The notes below the pieces were generated by a model. It was not told the origin of the DNA and did no database searches. It saw nothing but the letters and a program-made list of their open reading frames with translations. From Owenia fusiformis (Eukaryota): a stretch of 64,000 nt of DNA. The number at the start of each line of letters is the position of its first letter. The first letter of the stretch is position 1. The translations under genes were made by a program, and so were the position numbers. The DNA is taken from assembly GCA_903813345.2 (NCBI GenBank), contig CAIIXF020000001.1, positions 15,872,001 through 15,936,000 on the forward strand, in the 5' to 3' direction. This document shows positions 18,901-33,900 of the stretch, piece by piece.

Positions 18901-21900
18901 TTAATCTTTTTTGTTTTCTATTGCTTTGGCACCGTTCTCAGTCTCTTTCTTTAACTTCTCTTCTTCCTTTTGTTTCTGTTCATCTACTAAAACCTTCCAT
19001 TGTTTTAAATTAGTGCTGCAAGAAAAATTACCATCAGTTAAAAAATGAAGTTTGTAATGTGTCATATTACTTGATAAACACTTAAACAATTTAATATTAT
19101 CATAAACATCTGGAAAATCAGATTACTCCTTTTAATTTTAGATAAAGACTATTTGAAAAATAAAGTTTCCTTATCATGTAAAAATTACTACTTCTACTTT
19201 GTTCGATGAAAAAAAGAGTTATTACTCTTGTCTCATATGGGTACAATCTTTTTGGGACACCCTGTATATGAATTCATGTAATTGGCGTTTTGTTCTGTTC
19301 AAGTTGATTTGATCATGTTTCCCTTTCTACTGTGTCATTAAGAAAATTCCAGTTTCAATGGCAGTAATAACATCAAAGGGGATTCTCAACAATCTTGCAT
19401 TCAAATCAGATTTGTCCTTTTAAAATAGTTTGTAGATATTTATTCGGAAGTCTGATTTTAAAAAGCATATTGTTTTGATAGTTCCGTATTATCTAAGTAA
19501 TGCAAGTTGAGAAGTTTTATTGCTTATCATGCTTATTGAAGGTAACTGTAAAAACTTACTTAGCTCCATCCACCATTGGTTGTGTACCTGGTAGTAGGTT
19601 GGCCAGGAGCTCATAACATGGTAGGCATATGCCAACAATGAAGCCCACCTAAAATACAAGCACGGACATTAAAAAACAAATACAAATACACAAAACTAAT
19701 TTCTTATAATATTTTGTTCAAGTGGATGCATCTGAAGCATTTTAGATTCTGTTCTGACAATTTATTAGTGTTAGAATATAATCAATTGATGCATATACGT
19801 TTCAATTACATACGTTTTCCTTCCAAAAGTTTGTATTCTAAGTAATTGTTAACGTAATTTTATTCATTAGTAATAGCAATCTTAAGCAATTAATCCATTC
19901 TATTCACACTTTTAATTAGTTGTGCAAAGAGTGATTGCGGAAATGCATACGTGTTCGTCTTCTGTTAAAAAGATTGCTTGGAATGCAGGGAATTCGTTTC
20001 CTCATGACCGTTGTACTATATCTAGTAGATGTTCTCTTTGTCTTTACCTTAATGGTATGTGACACTTAATTAGGACAGTTCTTGGCTTATCTTAAGGTGG
20101 ATTCCGGTTATGGCATTGACCCGGGGTATTGATGGTTCAGAAAAAGGAATCAAAACCTGCCTAAGATTTCTCCTGATAACCACTGTGAATGATTGTGTTT
20201 TATTGTGAATACTAGTACATATATCTAGAACTATTCCTTATGTGAAGATCACTGTATTGTTTGTTTATAACTAGACTCTGCGCGCAGGGTAGAGTATTGC
20301 TCGTCATTTCTAATTTATTCTTCAACCTGCAATTCTGCATTGCAAGGATCCGCAGTATGAAAGAAATGTTACTTGGTTTTGTGGTCTTAGATTGTGATAA
20401 CCGTTCCAGAATGATAGGGACGGATGTATGACCCATTGTTGCTGTTGTTGAATTTTGTGTATTTTTGCCACAGAAAAAGTGAAATTTAAAATGTAAGTTA
20501 GCTAGAGTGACATACTTGTCGTTTTCTTATTTCCGCATATGTATGATTGTAATTTTAGTGATCTCACTTATGTATCGTTGTGAAGTCCGAAAATAGCACT
20601 GATCGAATCCGAGCACTTATTTTATCTTAAAAAGTGTATAGTAAAAGCACTAAATCTATTTTACATTGGTTCTTAAGTTTATTTGCCATAAATTGTTAAT
20701 ATATAGCTAGTTAGTAATTAAATAGTAATTTTAAGCAATAAAACCAACATATTCACACTATCAATTAGTCGTGCAGAGAAAATACAAATTAGTATGTGTT
20801 CCACTTCTGATAGAAAGATACGTATCAATTTCTATCTCTCTAGTTTATATCCAAATATTAGTAATACCGCTTGCTAAAAGTTGCAATATTTTAAAATAGC
20901 CTATAAGCCAATTATGTGGCCATATATCGACCCCAGTATGTTGCTCTTGAGCAGGATTATTTGGTGCACAAATTTTAGATTTTGTATGGTGGTTAGTAAT
21001 TCACACTGGCACTCTTATCATAAAATCCTCCCAGAAAAGAGCACGTGAGACAGTGAGAAGTATACCTCCATCATCGGTAACTCATCTGATTTAGTCCGAT
21101 CCATCATTGTTATTGGTGTTTGACCCTGATTCTTTTCCTCATCGCCCTGACAATGTATAACCCAATCAAATTGTTTTAAACTCAATGTGATGACTACAGC
21201 ACCACATATACTTGTAAATAACATCATGTGTATCGATCATGATGCACTCACATCTTCGACCAGTTGAAAAAACTAAACAGTAGTCATCGGTCAACTGAAA
21301 CATTGGTCAACTGAAAGACCTAAACAGTAGTCATTGGTGAACAACATGCATTCATAGTACGAATACTACACATCTGCTTTGGTCGACCACAAATTACAAT
21401 TATATTTTGGTAATTATAACATGTTAGTCTCATTGAAGTCGAACAAAAGCAAATGGTAATATTTATAACGATCACTGTATCATCTACCTGACTCTGCGGT
21501 AGCTCATGGGCTTTGTCTCGATCCATCATTGGAATGGGTTGGTTTCCTTGTGCCTTCTCTTCATCACCCTATATAATAATATGATTAGTACGACATAGTA
21601 TTGTCTTTATATCTAGTAATTATACTTTTAAACATTGTAAATTGTGATTTCTGAAAGGAGGAACACTTTAAAAATCAAAATCAAGTCTTTATCATGCATG
21701 TAGTGAAGAAAATTGAAATACAAACAAAAATAATTGACAGCCTTTAATATTTCATTTCAGGAATGCATGACTAACTTTCACAATGTCTGGTTTTTAATAC
21801 AAGTATAGAAGTGGATTAATTTTGTCTGCGATATTGTTCTTCAAACATAATGCCTGTCGTTCTGTACCACTGTACATAAATATGTGTCAAATGAAATACA

Positions 21901-24900
21901 CGTTTTAAATACACTGAAACATTAACAGCACCATCGTATAGCAGCCTACAACTGAACACAACACAGCAACTACGTATACACACAATATTTCTGTTCGGTT
22001 GCACATTTATCTAACCTGCACATGCAAGAATGTATGGCCATTCAAAACGCTTTGCGTTTTTGTATTTAAAAAATCAAGATTTGTCAGACTTACGTCATGA
22101 AACGTACATTGAGATTAAAACAATTTCAAATAATTTGACAGTTGGTGCAGATTTAACAAAATGCTAGCAACAGTCCTGTTACCTTTGGAACACACTTTAT
22201 GTTTACGAGTTCTTTGATCCCTAAATTTTAAACACAATCATGCAGAACTTTTTGAATGGCTCCAGCATATCACTCAAAAAAGGAATATCAATATAACAAT
22301 AAGATTGCACTTAGAAGTCAATTAATTTAAAGTTCACATACTACAGAAAATGATGTATTTTGTTCAGTAACCCATCCCCATGATACAGCAATTTTGCATT
22401 TTGCGCCCATGCTCATCTTAGATATCAGATAGTTTTATGCAAAATATACGAAAATAAACGTTTCACTATCAAATAAGAAGATCTGTCTTTAATACCTACG
22501 TTTCTTATACTACACTGTTTTAACTATAAATGGTCAATACACATCTATTACATATAAAGCAAACCTGGCACCAAAATTCCTCCATAATAATAAGGACAAG
22601 TTGCTTCTGTAGGTCCCATGGCTTGTACATTGAGCAAAGATCAGCTGCTGTCATGCTGATACCCATTAGCAATTTTCTAGAAGCAGGTACAACATGGATA
22701 CAACATAACTAAATCATTAACTACATGGTTCTAACAACAAAAAACAGAAAATATCTCCTGAAATACCTCCTGTTGAAGAACCACAATTTTTGTTACGTCG
22801 AGTCAGTATTGACATTGTTCTGATTCCTATTCGCAAATCGCTCGAGTGCTTTTTGAGGTTATTGTGGATTTTAGCAAGGTGCTATTTTTAAGTTTTATTT
22901 TAGATTTAAAGTGTGCGCCAAAGTTTAAAACTGCGCAGGCGCACCGCTCTCGCTAACCTATATAAAGCGATTACCGAGTACAGGCTTCAGAGGTAAGCCA
23001 GGAAGGTGAACAATCTTCGTTCCGTGTTGATTCCCCGTATAATCGTAACCAAGTAAGTTTCACCATTGAAATTAAAAATTACTATTAGATATAATTTGTA
23101 GATGTTATTTATGAAGCTATTGAGTGTATGCATCAATCAAATGGCTCATTTTAAACATATCAAAAGTATTTGTGTTTTGTTTCCCAGGGAATTGTATTCC
23201 CATATAGTACACACATAAATAGTGTACATTATGTACTTGAATAGCCTGGTTTACATAAATTGAAGGGCATGCTGATTACATGCACACGAGTACATGAATG
23301 AAGGCCTGATATTGATATAGCTTGCATACCTAAACAAAAAATAAACTCTTCTAATCCCCTAATGTAAACACGGCGGTATACGTAGCCCGATTTATCGGGG
23401 GCTTTAAGGACACCTGTTTAACTCTATTATAACTTTACAATTTCCAAGGGATTTAACCAAATTTTGAAGAAAGCATCAAGAAATGTGATATTACAGTATC
23501 AACGTATTAAAAACAGTGGTTCTGCAACAGAAGATAAAACCGTAACGGGAGGTATTTAGAATTTTTGGTTTGACACTAAAAATGTGTACAGTAAATAAGT
23601 GAGGAAATGTAACCAGAGCAAGACAAACAGTGTATGTGCGTTGCAGGGTGAACTAATATTTTTTGAGTTATTTGAATGTGGATATTTTGTATGTGGCCAT
23701 TGCGATGTCTCTGGTCATCATCATCTGTGAATTTCGAAACAGATATACCGTAAAACAGGAATTCCTTCAAACAGCCACTATATTGTATATGCATACGTTA
23801 AAGCGGATGATTAATTTTCAGAGTTTAACAGTTCATTCGCATTTTCCATACACATTTCCAAATTTGATATCACAAATCATATTTTGCTTGCCATTACAAC
23901 CACCCACTCTCTGAAAATTCCCATTATACATCGATCCCACCAATATTTACCCATTGCAATGTATACTATTACCATTTTATTGCAAATTGATTTCCAATTT
24001 TAAGTTTTATGATACGCCTTCTCAAACCGAAATGACCGAGGATCGATTAGAATAGGCGACTCATTTATTGGGATACCCAGTAGGCTTACCCTGTACATGT
24101 ACAATATAATAAGACTATTCCATCGGCTGTCTTTTCATAAGAAAACGCATGTATTTGGTGATCTCCAAAGGATGCACATTCTGTGACAAAGGCGTAGTAA
24201 TATATAATATTCACATAGATACTCAAAGATCTCTGCAATATGATTATGATACATTATTTGTCTGGCTCAGATTACCATGAATATATAAACTTATAACAAA
24301 TACAATGGTTGCAACTGAGACAACTATTTGTAACAGCATACCAAGCAAGTAAAAGAGTCGAGTTTAGCAATTGATGAAAAGCATGGGATGAAGTAATGTT
24401 TGTGCCTATAACCAATAATGAAAAAGTGGGTATGTATTTACTGATATTGTAAGACATGATTTACCATTGCATATAAAAATCTAATGAAACCATGCTTCCA
24501 CGGCGCTAGATGGCACTGACCTACCAACTAAGTGTAACTAGGGACATATCAACGTTCATAGGGTTGTCCAAATAAGTCGATTACAAAAACATACATATAC
24601 ACGCCGCACTAAACACTGATTATAAGACATTGCACAAGTTCACAAAATAAAATGTAAATATGACTCTCTGTTGTGTTGTTCTGTTTGTTTTGGTTTGGTA
24701 ATTTGATTAACCATTTCACCACAGCACATTTATATTAACATTCATGACAAGGAGGTCGAGATGAGACATTTGAACATACAGCGTAGGATTATTTGAAGTT
24801 TGGCCACCGTTAAAACTATTTCGAGCACAAAAATGAGGAAATTGAATTCAAATGGTCATACCACGCATCATAATATGAAAAACACCAATTGCAGTGTTCT

Positions 24901-27900
24901 CTTCAGTATGTATCATTTATCATTTGTAAACTATTATAATGTCCTCTTTTACAGCACATTGACTACTGATGAGTTTGTGCTTTGCCGTGGTGTTATACTT
25001 AATCAAACCTATTCGGAAAACAAAGCCACCCAGAAGCCTATTGTTCGTAAGATATTTCCCCCTGCACATTTACACGTGTATGAAGCCAGCATGCGTGGTG
25101 ACAACATTTACATCACATGTCTAGCTAGATTTGAACATACAAATTATGCATGCATAGCTGATACCTGTGCGTAAAATTCTTCAAAAATTATCTTGACTGT
25201 GTCGACTTGCATATCCCATGGTTTGGTACTGGCACATAGATCACAGGCAGTCATCGCAATTGCCTTGGCAAATGACCTATTTGAAAGCACGGCCAAATAC
25301 AATAAAGCATTCACATTCTGTTTGTGTTTATTTGATCACTGCATTACACACAATAAATCAAACCCACTGGAATGAAGAAGTGCAGTGAGGAGAGATAAAA
25401 TGAAATGATAGACAGAGGTACGACGATCAGGGCAATCATGCAAATACACTTTTCTAGTTTTGAATACCTGGGCATAGAACTCCTCGAAGATGACCTTGAC
25501 TGTGCTGACCTGCACTTGCCAAGGTTTGGTGCTTGCACAAAGGTCGCTAGCCGTCATGGCTATAGCCTGTATCAACCGCCTAAGTAAGCATAGATATTGG
25601 AGAAAATAGCTCTTCAATTTGAATTTCGAAGTCAAAGTAAAAGAATACTACAGTTTTAACTTCAGGTTAGATAACGGAAGTTTCACAAGAGGAACACACC
25701 AGTAATATATAGTTTACTAGGTCAGAATCAAGACTACTAGAAAAGTATTTAGAAAGATACGCATGATTATAATTTTCTTATAATAATCTTTATAATACAA
25801 TTGTGTGGATGTTTACTTTTTTTAACATTTTTAATAAAAATGCAGAATGACACTAACAGACCGAGTTCATAATGAGTGCAAATAATTTTAGATAATAAAA
25901 TATAACTTTAATTTCACAAAATACAGATTTCACCTCAATTTATTTCATACTAAAATGATAATTTTATTAAAATATGTAACATTGGATCGAATTTCCATAC
26001 CTGTGGTCTTGGGCTTCCCATGAAAACTCTTTCTTTTCACAAAGATCCTTTAGTTTCGCCCTGTTGGGGAAAAACAATGCCAGATCTGTGGCCAGGATAC
26101 AATGTTTGATGTCACTTAAGACTTTCTTGTATTCATCTGATGTCAGGTGCTTGAATATATTGTGACCATCACGCTGCAAAATGGTGGAAATAGCTGAATG
26201 AATAATTGAAATAATTGAATTAAATAAACTTTTTCTTACCATTCAATCATTATATTTTACAGTTCATACATTTCTGATATAACATTTTGCTCCCCATATT
26301 TTTCGCAATTACAATAATATGAATTGAATACAGTTATTTGACATGCATCTAAAATAATAATCATAATCAAACCTTAGAACAAAACGCAAACCGGCTACAC
26401 AGGAATCAATGGTAAGATCAAATATGGTAGATTAAAACTCGAGGCTATATACAGTTGATCCTATATGTGTTTATTCCTTTCAACTTACCGGTTGATTTAA
26501 TATATGATAACATGACCAGATAAATTTTCTTTAGGCCAATAATAAATCAACATATACATGCAACACATTTCAGTTAATGACGAACACTTAATTCCCTATT
26601 CAACTGTGTACTACACCTGTTTTGAAATCAATAAATAGACTAAAAATTAACGTGTTAAGCAAACATTATGACAACACGTTTTGATGTATATGTAAAGGTT
26701 TTGACATTGTGGTCACTCTGTAAATGATTTTGCATTGCATTGCATTGGTTAAATAAAATCATTAAAGCATACCCCATTAAAGCATTCCCAACAATGACAA
26801 TATATAACAACACATGCGATGAATGGTACAGTTCTTACTTGTAAGATTGAGATGGTGTGATTAAAATGATGTTGTTCCATAGTTGAAGTGGAGTATATGG
26901 CTGCTAGGGGACTCGCAGTCTTCACCATGAAGGCATTTGTGTAACCCCGGTGATCAACATCGTGACAGAGGCATGCAACAAACAATGCCAGTCGCTGCAA
27001 CATCAAATATGGGTTCATGTGACCGATACAACAGCTCATGGTTACAACATATTTTGGGTGATACCCATGCATATGATTGGATGATCACACTGCATTTTCA
27101 TATTTCATACCATGGACATGAAGGAATGGATAGGAATGTTTAGGGAACTGGTCTCTCCAATTTAGTTTTGTTTTAGCCCAATAGGCCACACAAAATGGGT
27201 GAGATTACTGAGCCAGCGAAAGATTCCAAAACATTTCCTCAAGTTTATTCATCCATTTTTTCTCACATTCCATACGTGAAAAGTGTACAACATAAATATC
27301 CTGCTTCCTGGAAAGAATGCTATGAATTAGTAAGGTTGTGAGGTTGGAGTTTGGGTAACATAAAGCGTGATACCACATCCCATGCACAATTCGGTTATAC
27401 CTTGTGTACATGTACATTCACAATACCACAGGGTATGTACCTGTAGGATAGTCACTGTCATATTAAAGTGGTGGTGTTCCATAGTTGATGTGCTATATAT
27501 ATCAGCTAGAGGAGAACATGATTTCACCATAAATGAGTTGGTCTTCCCTCTGTGGTCCAGATCGTGGCATAAACATGCTACATACAATGCCATATTCTGC
27601 AAAAGTACTACAAGTGTGGGGAAATATTTAACAGACGAATGAGAGGGAGATACTTTAAGCCAGATTTTGGAGCGTTTGTCCATTCTAAAAGTATGCATAT
27701 ATGTTTTTCATACATCCTAAATTTTCGTATCATGTCCAGTGATACTTTGATTTGGTTAACAGTGATTCAATTAGGCTACTTTTCTGTTCTTTTTTCTCAT
27801 CGGATCTACAGCAAAAGACATGGAGCTGCAAAACACTACATAACATTCATGTAACATCGAAAAAACGCAATCAATTCAGCATTGGGACTGATTGAATCAT

Positions 27901-30900
27901 AGTATTTTACTAGTTTCATACAGCATAGACTAACTGTAGTTTACACGAGCTGATGATTTTATGTGCAATTGGGGGTACCACTTGTAAGTATATCAGGACA
28001 TGTCCTGGGTGTTCCGTATTACCGTCCATATTTTCGGTTATTTGCAAATGTTTATTTGTTATTTCTAAAGATAGTCTACTATAGTATAACTTATATAGGC
28101 AATTTTCCACAGTGATTATCGAGCAATCATTTTGCACAAGATTCCTGATTAATGACCTAATTATCAGGGTCAGTGAAATAAAATCATTACCTCAAGAGGG
28201 TTGAATATATTGTCCGTGGTCTTTATGACAGTGTACATGGCGTGGGCGACCGAGAAAGCATGGCTCCAATTGTGGTATGGCACATTACGATAATTCTTTC
28301 TCACAGTCAATGTGAACTTTATCAAACTGCTAATGTCGAACCTTGAAATAATAATATGCTAAATTGATATATAATTGATGATTGTTTATATGGTTAAAAG
28401 TTATTTCTGCATATCAAGAATTTGAAGACGTGCTAGACCGATTGATTTATGTGTATGTTATATAATATATTACAGAATGCACTGTTTGCACAGGAGTTTG
28501 ATTTTAACCCATGGTAATATTATAATGAACTGTACCTAAATAGAAAGAAAACTTGAAATTATTTTATTACAAATGCCTTAAATTCATTATAGTAAATGTG
28601 TATGTTTGTTAAAATGAAGAGACAATATCTACACGTCTAGTTTTAAAACGGAAAACATTTACGCATAAAGATAAATATTGTATTGGTCAAAAATACCAAT
28701 AATTATTGCTATTAAATAATAAATTAAGGTGTTTGTAACTACACTTTGATTACCCATATGAAACATTTATATATAACTTTAAGTACATAAATAATGCAAT
28801 AAAGCGCCCTAAAATTTTATTCTATGCACAGAAAAAGCTGATAAATCCTAAAATATAACTATTCACATTATACCTTTGGTCCCCCTCTTGGTCGCTATTA
28901 TGTGAAATAGTATAATTGAAATGTTTAATATTTGTGAAATCTACAACAATCCTTTAAGTAAAGGAGCATGGAAGGTATTGCAACAGATTTCAGACAGTCA
29001 TATGTTGGATTTTGCCTATTTTGGGAGGATTTGTACAGGTGCATATGCTAGGCCAATGCATAAACTCCATGACAAGCACTCATAAAGATGATAGAATAAT
29101 TGACTCTGAGACAGGAAGGGTGCAAACACCCCACCAACACGTTTTTCCTGAAATGTTGTCCTAATTTTCGGCCCTTTCCACCCCTGTCTCTTCAATGCTC
29201 GATGCATATATATGTTGCGTTTTGAGACAAAGTTAACCTCTTAAAAGGAAAATGGATTCATTTGGGATAAAGTGGAAAACAATATTTCCCATGTTATTTT
29301 CCCATAGGGAAAACTCATGCGATCCATTGTTTTCAGCTTGATTTTGGTCACCTATAAACCCCTGCATGAATCCTGTTTTCCTTTAAAGAGGTTAGCGGTG
29401 TCTCTAAACGCAACATACTGATGCATCAAACATTGAAAAACAGGGGTGAAAAGGGCTGAAAATCAGGACGTTTCAAGAAAATATGTTGTTGGGATGTTTG
29501 CACTATCCCTGTCTCAAAGTCCAAATCGTTTTATCATCTCTATAAGTGATTGTCCTGGAGTTAATGCCTAACATATGCACCTGTTCCAACATATGACTGT
29601 CTGAAATCTGTCGCGATACCTCCCGTGTTCCTATAAAGACAAGTCGCTTTTTACAATACTCATAATATTTATAGTAATTATGCTTGGGAGATTGCTCTAC
29701 TGGTCAAAATAGGTCTAATATCATTAAGACTAATCCTTCACCAAATTTGTGTTGCATTATCTCTCAAACAAATGGTAGGCATATGCCTCAGTAGTTAACT
29801 GTTAAAACAATATCAAACAACACCAGGTATGGATTACTTGGTGCTTTGCTAGAATTACTACTCTGTAAGGACAATGATTTGGTGAGAGGGCAGAAAAAAA
29901 TATATTTAAGATTCTACTATACCTTGACATGTTGAAGATGTCTTTGAACATGTACAGGACATACTGGGGCTTGTCTTCATTCAATACTCCCCATGGCGAG
30001 AATTCGTATCTAACAAATACATATGCATAGGATTTTAATGACAGTCATTGGGTGATTGTTTCTAGTATCAGTCAATTTTAATTTTGTAGGCGTTCTAGGG
30101 TTTGTTCCTAGTTTAAATACGCTTCTACATATCACTACAACATCTGCATTAATTATAGTAAGTTAATTGTATAATTGCGTGCGTTTCACAAAACTATGAC
30201 TCAGTTGTAAACTAAATGATAAGGAATCCAAATATATTAGAATTCTAATGTGTAACATCCTCCTAACGTAGGGTTCCAGATCTAGACATCATCCACTACT
30301 AGATTGAATGACATCCGGCACCTTGCGTTTGGAGGATGAATGTGCAAATAATGCAATATCAAGTTATTATACTGTAGTATTGGTTATTTCAACTCACAGT
30401 GTGACATCAGGTAGTGTTGTGGGTATGACTCGGTCTTTGTATTGAGAAAACTCATCTTCTGTGCATTGGCTATGGTAGGATAGTACTTCAAGTGCAACCT
30501 TGTGTTTTTGTTCAGACCGACGGATTTTATCATAAAGCTATAATGTAAATGCACTTCGGTTAATTCAAATCTGTTATGCAATCCTGAATGATGGGCGAAC
30601 ATTGTTTCTAATGCGTTGGATCATAATTGGGGTACTTGGGTTTGTTGACTTGTTTCTTGCCTTCGTCTTAATACACTTGGGTTCTTCTTATGTCACTGTG
30701 CTAACATACATGTACCATATAAAGTGAAACCGGTAGTGACTGAATTACTTCTTCTGTTATTTTCTGTTTTAATAATCATTTTATAGATATTCATGATTTT
30801 ATTTATGATTTTCTGTCAGTTGCCTGGGGATTTAAACAAGAAACTAGTTGCAACGAAATGAAATCATCTTATGTTTTTTATTAAAATGTTATTACAGTAA

Positions 30901-33900
30901 AACCTGCGAACAGGGAATGCTCTTGGGACTGGAGGAAAGTTTCCTTGTTCAGAGGTTTTCCCTATAGAGAGGGGCCGCACTTTCAGCAAACTCAAACTTG
31001 CCGAATAAGATTATTTGTATATATATTGATTGATTGTACAAATGCCGATTCCATACTTGGTTACATTCTCCCCATGTTGATTTTAGCTGCTGCTAGCGTC
31101 TGATGATGTCTAGTTGATGTAATCATTGGTATGATGTGTAGAGATATATTGCTAAGAACAGAATTTCAAGTTTCAGCAACCCTATTTTATATCATTGATA
31201 ATCTAGAAGTTGGATCAGTAAAAGATTTAAAGAGATTTGGCTCAACATGACCGTGTACTTACTATCTATCAACTCCATAAAACAATTGTGTCAGTCCCTA
31301 GATTATCACAACTGATTTGATGTAATTAGGTTTTTGAAAGAAAGAATTGGTGTCATGATAATAAGTAACAGATTAGTATTAGTTTTAAAATAAATCAGGG
31401 TAATTAACAGTGGGTGGGATGCTACATCATGTCAACAATTAGCTTATCTTAATCTCAATCATATTAATCCAAGCTTTTTATATTCAGATATTGGCTTAAG
31501 ACTTTCACACCTCTGAAAAATAATGGAATATACAGTGTCACCAATATTCCATATTCCTTGTTCACAGGTGAATTTTCATAATTTGCCCCAAAATAGTGTT
31601 CCTTGTTCCCTGTTCACAGGTTTTCCCTACAGAGAGGGTCCGTTAACATATAAGTCAATGGAAAAATATTTGGTTCTTTTGAAAAGCATTCCTTGTTCAT
31701 AGGTTTTCCCTACAGAGAGGTATTCCATCGGACAGGTTTTACTGTATATATATATAGCAACATCATACTTATGTCCGATCATAAGTTCGAATAATAGTTT
31801 CAAATATTAATTGTATGACATGTATATAAGACCAATGTTAACGCTACCAGGGGGAATCGGACATGCAGACCTTACTATTTATACATGTTATTCTGTCTTT
31901 TGAAAAATTCAACTTGTAATGTATATTTCCTAGTTTTTCAAAGAAATATCAATTTAAATATCAAGACGTCATGCTTTTCTCATACTTATAGAACCCAATG
32001 TGGCTGTCACTGGTCATTTATTAAAGCAGGAAAAAAATTGCTTCATGGATGACAAAATGTTTCTACTTTCCCGGTAAATGTAGAGTCTCGCACCATACGA
32101 ATATAATTTTAGGCGATCTGTCTGCATGGGGTGGAAATAAGGTAGTCTAGTACAGTGTAGTATGAAATTGAATGATATACATGTGTGTCAAATATCAGGC
32201 AGAAATTCCTTAAAATGACAAAGATATGGGGAAACAGAGTTGCCGTTTTTTACCACCCTGTATAAATCTAGAGATAGTAAATACAAGACGTAAATGATTA
32301 TGAGAACAGGATTTATGGTAGTAGCAAGAATTTCAAAATCATTATTTTCTTAACTAATGCTAAATTATTGGAAACACAATTGCATCAATATGAAACGTTG
32401 ACTATTGGCATACATGTTACATAACACTTGGACAACATAGATGTCAATCATAAATCGATGGCTAATACCTAATGATTTATCGTTATTGTTTACCTTTGCG
32501 TGGTGAAGGGCCAAGCCACAGTACACTGCAAACGTTTCGAATGACTCTTCGTCTGATTTTGTAAACACGCCATGTGTTTTATTCACCATTTGAACGACTC
32601 CTATTATGCTATATAGTACAAAATAATTTGAATTACATTGAGTACGATGAGTCGTTAAAACTTTGAAACCTATTATGCTATATGGTACAAAATAATTTGA
32701 ATTGCATTGCATACGATAAGTTGTTAGAACGTTGAGATCCTTTTGTACAGATACCATTCTGTTGTGTAAGAGTCAAATCATCTATTGTATAACCATTTAG
32801 TATGGTTCAATATTATCTAATGTCCAGGTTATAATGAAACATTTTGGGTGTTGGAATAAGGTAATGTACTGCTTAGTCTATTGTTTCAAATTATTGCAGT
32901 TAGTTTTTTGTTGGGCATTGTTAGTCTTTAAATATTCAAATATCTAAGACAACACTTCGATTCAACACAAACGAAATGATCTGAATATGTGATATCACAT
33001 GTAAGACAAATAATATGAGGACTTACTCTCGACTTACTGTCTGACTATTTGCTACTATATCTTAACTATTCACAATGTCAAATGGAACATATCAAAATTA
33101 CATAACACAATATAGGAATATTATTTTCTTACTTGTACTTCTTTTGACTGTAAGAGGAAAAGGGAAAATATAGAGAGATTACCTATTATGAGCAAATTAA
33201 AGCAGAATGTAAATGAGTACCAGTAATACAAGCATACACATGCAAAACATACAATAATTCATTTCAAACTAACTTGCTTGAACTTAGGCATATGGCGTTA
33301 CATATACGATATATAGCCAACACAATAAAATATTATATTTTATAAAGCAAACACTCAATTGAAGAAAACGTGGATACCACAGGGGCAAATATGCAAGAAT
33401 ATACATGATTTAAATATTAAGACCATGCATCACACACAATAGTTACATCAATATTCTTTCTGAACTTGTATCGAAAGTCAATGACAAGCCCTAAAATTTG
33501 AGGCAAAACTGAATATGAATCAAACTAAAACATGGATATAGTAATAACCAATAATAACCAGAGGATTGGCCTCATATTATTATTAAAATAGAATCCATAG
33601 TGCCTCAATAATATACCAAAATATATTAATCATAAGAATAACATTTCTAAATGAGCCATGCATTTTAAGAGCATAAAATATGATTAAATAGTTTGAAAAG
33701 ATATGACAAACTAAAATTTAATAATTAAATAAAATACTATGACTATTATAATGGGATTGTTAATATCACAACATACCTTCCACGAATATATATTGGCATA
33801 CACAGAATTGTTTTCGTAGTATAGCCTGTCTGGGCATCAACATCTCTGTAAAATAATATATAATATTATATTATAATGGATTATACTATATTATACTACA

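Follow-up and report, generated by a model that had tools for sequence, protein, structure and literature searches.

In this work, we analysed a 64,000-nucleotide stretch of the genome of Owenia fusiformis (contig CAIIXF020000001.1, positions 15,872,001 to 15,936,000 of the forward strand; hereafter the window, in whose numbering all positions are given) and focused on three 112-nt exons, named a, b and c, lying in tandem within a gene for a PDE10-like phosphodiesterase (PDE). These are very likely homologous, mutually exclusive exons, of which c would give the enzyme a differently shaped pocket, with mis-spliced messengers being passed to nonsense-mediated decay (NMD). The three pocket exons are:

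25579..25468, minus strand: pocket exon a, 112 nt, a-type; the copy contained in the deposited 884-aa model, with a 100% match to residues 753-790 of that protein (P0001)
25276..25165, minus strand: pocket exon b, 112 nt, a-type by tree group; splice joints of sequencing run X9 on both sides
22676..22565, minus strand: pocket exon c, 112 nt, c-type; donor gtttgc, with T at +3

Each of the three is flanked by ag on its 5' side and gt on its 3' side, i.e. every copy has its own acceptor and donor, and all share a common phase of one base plus 37 codons. Amino acid identity amounts to 28/37 between a and b, 18/37 between a and c and 19/37 between b and c, and nucleotide identity to 77/112, 60/112 and 61/112, respectively. 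Copies a and b carry the motifs DLCASTK and (V/I)IFEEFY, copy c carries DLCSMYK and IIMEEFW, and exon position 23 is Gln in every copy. The first-pass annotation of this DNA, made from its letters alone, had reported the same a/b and a/c identities, the same motifs and the shared Gln; our recomputed figures agree, and every motif is present in the copy to which it had been ascribed. A profile built from the pocket exon of many species was searched against the 3596 stop-to-stop open reading frames (ORFs) found in the six frames of the window. It matched a, b and c at E values of 1e-23 to 2e-24, and no fourth or decayed copy was found in the window, the next match having an E value of 0.67. The resemblance of the three copies is far beyond chance, and they are homologous alternative exons of the PDE catalytic domain.

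Using the ORF around exon a as query, we retrieved the deposited 884-aa Owenia fusiformis protein P0001, which is identical over this exon. The tblastn analysis of this protein places the gene on the minus strand of the window, from about 58773 to 18904. Pfam recognised two GAF regions and a PDEase_I domain (PF00233, 5e-83), and comparison with solved catalytic chains gave 333 bits for PDE10A, 235 for PDE5 and 228 for PDE2A. On this basis we class the host gene as a PDE10-like GAF-GAF-PDE whose catalytic domain is closest to PDE10A among the solved PDEs; 'pde-5', the RefSeq name for this invertebrate group, comes from the nematode gene. The catalytic exons surrounding the pocket exons, in order of transcription, are:

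27441..27596, minus strand: HD-motif exon, second copy (copy 1), 156 nt, ag/gt borders; located by tblastn
26839..26994, minus strand: HD-motif exon, used copy, 156 nt; located by tblastn and X9 joints
26001..26173, minus strand: constitutive upstream exon, 173 nt; located by tblastn and the X9 joints 26173>26839, 25578>26000 and 25274>25999
21488..21568, minus strand: M-loop exon 1, 81 nt, ending in the codon for the invariant purine-binding Gln (Q817 of P0001)
21066..21146, minus strand: M-loop exon 2, 81 nt, ending in a Glu codon that replaces the invariant Gln
19560..19648, minus strand: next constitutive exon (VGF...); located by tblastn and X9

The upstream exon ends in ..CACAG, and its Arg codon is completed by the first base of a, b or c. 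The invariant Gln before VGF is kept with M-loop exon 1 (..QSQ followed by VGF) and absent with M-loop exon 2. The two HD-motif copies are 74% identical in protein, with HDxDHRG in both. Thus, three exon sets are duplicated in the catalytic domain; of these, the pocket exon alone is of a length not divisible by three.

The splicing of a and b can be followed in run X9. This run is kept as contigs, which drop rare forms, and is not on record as RNA; since its ten joints with CT..AC ends on the plus strand (i.e. GT..AG on the minus strand) fall at exon borders, it is cDNA-derived. The upstream exon is joined to a (25578>26000) and to b (25274>25999), and M-loop exon 1 is joined from a (21567>25467) and from b (21567>25164); another joint links M-loop exon 1 to the next exon. 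No joint between a and b is present among the X9 joints listed. Both copies are thus linked, independently of each other, to the exons on either side, which makes them alternatives in RNA, each used alone. Junctions of b, which the first-pass annotation had named as a check on its reading, are among these joints. The word depths of the a and b forms are 22.6 and 22.4, a poor measure of their level.

Exon c belongs to a group of exons found well beyond Owenia. The longer database matches to c were all c-type (8/8), with 24-29/37 identities to c versus 15-21/37 to a or b; they comprised isoform models of the oysters Saccostrea, Crassostrea and Ostrea and of the nemertean Tubulanus, as well as Logan transcript-derived proteins. 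The short matches were all genomic c-type exons (13/13) with the donor border as in c, and further c-type variants were present in the representatives library. Among 14 metagenome loci with a c-type exon, ten show an a-type exon upstream of it (L001, L003, L005 and L008-L014), with the exons arranged as upstream exon, a-type, c-type, M-loop, next exon. In the other four (L002, L004, L006 and L007) the c-type stands alone, L004 being an intronless, spliced copy with c-type only. All 18 exons read from 12 of the metagenome loci are 112 nt long, and the 17 from intron-bearing loci all have ag/gt borders.

Comparison of Owenia c with 11 c-type exons gave, out of 37 codons, 23-30 identical first positions, 29-32 identical second positions and 12-21 identical third positions. 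Such a distribution, with few identities at third and many at second positions, argues for translation of the exon and for purifying selection on it. In a tree of 38 exon peptides, whose 37 columns make only the deep split reliable, a-type and c-type exons are set apart with support 97/89, Owenia a and b being on one side and c on the other; this is the phylogeny of the copies across species that had been proposed with the first-pass annotation. The latter had described c as a strongly divergent copy. At the identities it shares with its oyster and nemertean relatives, c is better regarded as a member of an old, conserved second exon class than as a copy that has drifted, and this c-type class is conserved and transcribed in other animals. 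Besides the Owenia protein itself, matches to exon a were all a-type (28/28, with 28-31/37 identities to a), those with a name being arthropod. Between a and b, 13/37 third positions are identical versus 34/37 second positions, and therefore this pair is old too. Because a single a-type exon was seen in each of the ten loci with both types, b is taken as a lineage-specific extra a-type copy.

Several other observations were made on these exon families. Two tandem pocket-exon copies lie in one genomic ORF each in P0051 and P0102: one of these carries a third class (DLCSS.K.W ... IIMEEFFQQ) next to a c-like copy, and the other comes from a different GAF-PDE (DLSSSSK ... EFHEQ). They suggest that the pocket exon may have been duplicated repeatedly. 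The c-type exons of L008, L009, L011 and P0036 have Cys instead of Gln at the position equivalent to PDE5 Q775; L008 and L009 show a Gln-type M-loop exon only, P0036 is spliced to a Gln-type one, and no M-loop exon was seen in L011. The Glu-type M-loop exon is also found in oyster isoforms and in L001, L002 and L007. Two copies of the HD-motif exon occur in L001 as in Owenia, and one in the remaining loci.

In order to locate the differences between the copies within the enzyme, a and c were aligned using HMMER with the full-length PDE5 (in which exon position i corresponds to residue 752+i), PDE6 and PDE10A chains, in each case without gaps; P0001 and the PDE10A chain aligned over equal spans. 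The Asp at exon position 12 is the metal-binding Asp in a, b and c, i.e. D764 of PDE5 and, through the D-L-x-S motif, D674 of PDE10A. PDE10A numbers were derived from this D674 anchor and the gapless alignment, and for PDE5 we take positions 31 and 34 to be A783 and F786. The pocket positions compare as follows, with the residues of a, b and c given in that order:

Position 13: PDE5 L765; PDE10A L675; L/L/L
Position 15: PDE5 A767; PDE10A S677; A/A/S
Position 16: PDE5 I768; PDE10A V678; S/S/M
Position 23: PDE5 Q775; PDE10A T685; Q/Q/Q
Position 26: PDE5 I778; PDE10A not named; T/T/L
Position 27: PDE5 A779; PDE10A A689; V/V/V
Position 30: PDE5 V782; PDE10A I692; I/I/I
Position 31: PDE5 A783 (presumed); PDE10A Y693; F/F/M
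Position 34: PDE5 F786 (presumed); PDE10A F696; F/F/F

The nine differences between a and b (positions 1-4, 11, 21, 22, 25 and 29) all fall outside the listed pocket residues. Relative to a, c is changed at pocket positions 15 (A>S), 16 (S>M), 26 (T>L) and 31 (F>M) and at the neighbouring positions 17 (T>Y) and 35 (Y>W), and therefore a pocket of different shape is expected. The first-pass annotation had matched the divergent positions by hand to S677/V678 and Y693 of PDE10A and the shared Gln to Q775 of PDE5. The gapless alignment bears this out, and the formal alignment that had been named as its check places differences between a and c at S677, V678 and Y693.

The mapping is also supported by residue lists in the literature. 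Eight of the 11 PDE5 site residues listed in the part of PMC6321839 consulted lie within it, as do five of the 11 PDE10A residues listed in the corresponding section of PMC12571622. Asp674, Leu675 and Ser677 are named as further PDE10A pocket residues in an extract of PMC11007772, and an extract of PMC12982385 places Y693 in the PDE10A selectivity pocket. Vertebrate PDE10A resembles the Owenia gene in its GAF-GAF-catalytic layout, and the equivalents of D674, L675, I692 and F696 are kept in a, b and c. In contrast, position 23 is Gln in all three Owenia copies, as in PDE5 (Q775), whereas PDE10A has Thr685. The equivalent of Y693 is Phe in a and b and Met in c, so that the hydrogen bond of the PDE10A selectivity pocket is absent.

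The consequences of each splicing choice for the reading frame were obtained by joining the exons by coordinates and following the frame. With a single a, b or c and either M-loop exon, the frame is open to the normal stop. Skipping of the cluster brings a stop of the M-loop exon into frame, at 130-136 nt before the last junction. When two or three copies are combined, translation meets a TGA at base 34 in the second of them, because the conserved Met-Thr codons are there read one base off; this stop lies 249 nt (double inclusion) or 361 nt (triple inclusion) before the last junction. The first-pass annotation had stated that skipping the cluster, or including two or three copies, shifts the frame. 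This holds for skipping and double inclusion, both of which give premature stops, and has to be amended for triple inclusion: three copies add 336 nt, a multiple of three, which restores the final frame, although the internal TGA is still met. All these stops are located more than 55 nt before the last junction, and mis-spliced mRNAs should therefore undergo NMD, a fate that we infer for them. A dependence of this kind is known in Caenorhabditis elegans, where, according to the part of PMC4165533 consulted, 14 of 19 clusters with exons whose length is not a multiple of three are NMD-dependent.

Several mechanisms that could enforce exclusivity were considered. The spacing of a and b and a repeat within the cluster are as follows:

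25277..25467, minus strand: a-b intron, 191 nt
22764..23536, no strand assigned: repeat element within the b-c intron, bounded by 58-nt inverted ends and lying 88 nt upstream of exon c

Steric exclusion was rejected, as an a-b intron of 191 nt would be long enough to be spliced. U12-type introns as a source of exclusivity were rejected as well: all borders are gt..ag and lack the U12 donor motif. Docking/selector pairing showed no excess over 30 shuffles in five intron pairs, with duplex energies at z from -0.85 to +0.58. The Owenia cluster is like Dscam-type docking/selector systems in having more than two alternative exons, with no sign of their intron pairing in the five pairs compared. The inverted repeats (65 pairs) are short and AT-rich. 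The repeat element itself is covered by numerous RNA reads showing variant letters and loose ends, a picture typical of a multi-copy transposon family, its depth and other letters being seen at 22774-23641; comparable pile-ups of reads occur at about 29266-29717 and 30586-31000.

Altogether, we propose that a single copy would be joined to the 173-nt exon (26173..26001) on one side and to an M-loop exon on the other. The helix with the metal-binding Asp is encoded by each copy, along with a large part of one wall of the purine pocket, so that choosing c would result in a differently shaped pocket, probably with another substrate or ligand preference. With an exon of 3n+1 nucleotides, an mRNA with none, two or three copies would meet a premature stop and be sent to decay. 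Among the spliced sequences available, a or b stands alone at the joints listed for Owenia X9, and the c-type stands alone in sequences of other species.

Some points weigh against this proposal, and most of them concern the use of c in Owenia. No splice junction between c and a neighbouring exon was found among the Owenia joints listed for X9. The only X9 piece listed over c is a 203-nt contig (22479-22678, depth 11.2), which runs 86 nt into the downstream intron, unspliced at the donor, and explains by itself the bin mean depth of 5.16 at c; this donor (gtttgc) appears weak. No Owenia protein with c was present in the protein collections, where the best identity was 83% (representatives library, 71 matches). 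Three raw RNA runs, of which 6-12% of each was read, have almost no reads on the gene; they were counted neither for nor against expression. With regard to the cluster as a whole, no double-inclusion or skipping joint occurs among those listed, in contigs that drop rare forms, and the effect of the substitutions on specificity would follow from homology alone. A hint of c splicing comes from run X13, whose bins hold about 82 letters at the upstream exon, 148 at c and 74 at M-loop exon 1, a sum near 2 x 151. These letters would fit one read pair spliced from the upstream exon through c to M-loop exon 1, below the listing threshold. From its strong conservation and its use in other phyla, c is probably used in Owenia too.

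Contigs of about 200 nt that include flanking intron were seen in X9 over M-loop exon 2 (20956-21154) and HD copy 1 (27467-27663), as over c (22479-22678). The first of these is unspliced and that over HD copy 1 is unspliced at the acceptor, and most other intron bins are empty in X9. Slow splicing around alternative exons is one possibility for these short contigs.

The same data could be read as showing that inclusion of c is mainly non-productive in Owenia, its weak donor retaining the intron so that c acts as a regulatory 'poison' choice. The donor gtttgc and the intron-retaining contig over c are what this explanation would predict. However, the codon-position conservation of c fits a translated exon, the c-type is read in frame in mRNAs of other species, and the short unspliced contigs over M-loop exon 2 and HD copy 1 fit slowly spliced pre-mRNA in general; we therefore hold this explanation to be improbable. 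Even less probable is that c is an unused relic or pseudo-exon in Owenia, kept by chance, only a and b being of importance. Although no c junction reads are found among those listed and the deposited model contains a, a silent exon would not keep 24-29/37 identities to the c-type of other phyla while its third codon positions are close to saturated. Moreover, c has an intact frame, a length of exactly 112 nt and ag/gt borders, and RNA-derived contigs lie over it.

A further alternative concerns the partners of c rather than its use. The first-pass annotation had suggested that c may be co-selected with one particular M-loop copy, and it could be that c is chosen together with the Glu-type M-loop exon (21146..21066), perhaps also with the second HD exon, giving two discrete pocket types. 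Spliced sequences with a Glu-type M-loop carry a c-type pocket exon in 5/5 cases, all from other species (P0030, P0031, P0033, P0034 and P0069), but this sample is biased, the Glu-type sequences having been drawn with a c-type query. In X9, the spliced forms are H2-a-M1 and H2-b-M1 (HD exon, pocket exon and M-loop exon), and HD copy 1, c and M-loop exon 2 are each represented by one short, low-depth, unspliced contig. Against such pairing, the c-type is spliced to a Gln-type M-loop in six sequences of other species (P0032, P0035, P0036, L004, P0058 and P0078), so that co-selection with one M-loop copy is not supported. Between c and the next exon, the sole M-loop exon seen in L001 and L007 is Glu-type, and the a-type exon of L001 would need to pair with it too; in addition, the X13 depths fit a read pair joining c to M-loop exon 1, with no listed joint. 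HD-exon identities obtained by tblastn across loci show no clear split into two types. A link between c and an M-loop type is thus possible in some lineages and is not a rule, and we consider discrete pairing in Owenia rather unlikely. Its broadest form, to which we give no more than tentative credit, would be one gene encoding at least two old, distinct catalytic pockets, with the exon sets for HD motif, pocket helix and M-loop chosen coordinately: a c-type helix (Ser/Met/Tyr/Met/Trp) with a Glu M-loop would have a cyclic-nucleotide preference unlike that of a/b with Gln, and would have been kept since before the annelid/mollusc/nemertean split.

Mutually exclusive exons are well documented, classical examples being M1/M2 of PKM, A/C of KHK and the exon 3 variants of insect sodium-channel and GluCl genes. 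Surveys have covered clusters of C. elegans (PMC4165533) and human events (PMC9741552); 'pde' and 'phosphodiesterase' have 0 occurrences in the main text of either. The Owenia set resembles known clusters in the equal length and phase of its exons, in the inclusion of one per mRNA (seen for a and b) and in an old conserved substitution, its length being no multiple of three as in 19 C. elegans clusters (PMC4165533). It differs from known clusters in that the part exchanged lines a PDE substrate pocket and carries a metal ligand, and in being flanked by two further duplicated exon sets, 3n long, within the same catalytic domain.

To our knowledge, variation among known (vertebrate) PDE isoforms lies in the regulatory N-terminal regions and not in the pocket. 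Our literature search, which covered invertebrate PDE10, Owenia splicing and glutamate in place of the invariant glutamine in mollusc PDEs, found no paper on a pocket-exon swap in a PDE catalytic domain, though the c-type is already contained in RefSeq isoform models of oysters and a nemertean. The Owenia set therefore joins a known class, that of tandem-exon substitutions, at a location, a wall of a PDE substrate pocket, that we did not find in print.

Here, splicing exchanges a wall of the substrate pocket itself. The swap is probably functional, since at least three animal phyla have it. It would offer a natural experiment on what determines the preference for cAMP or cGMP and the selectivity of inhibitors in the PDE5/PDE10 group, and raises questions about the roles of the Q775-type anchor, the Y693-type selectivity pocket and the invariant glutamine of the M-loop. 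Finally, single gene models, such as the deposited 884-aa protein, would understate the enzyme repertoire of these animals.

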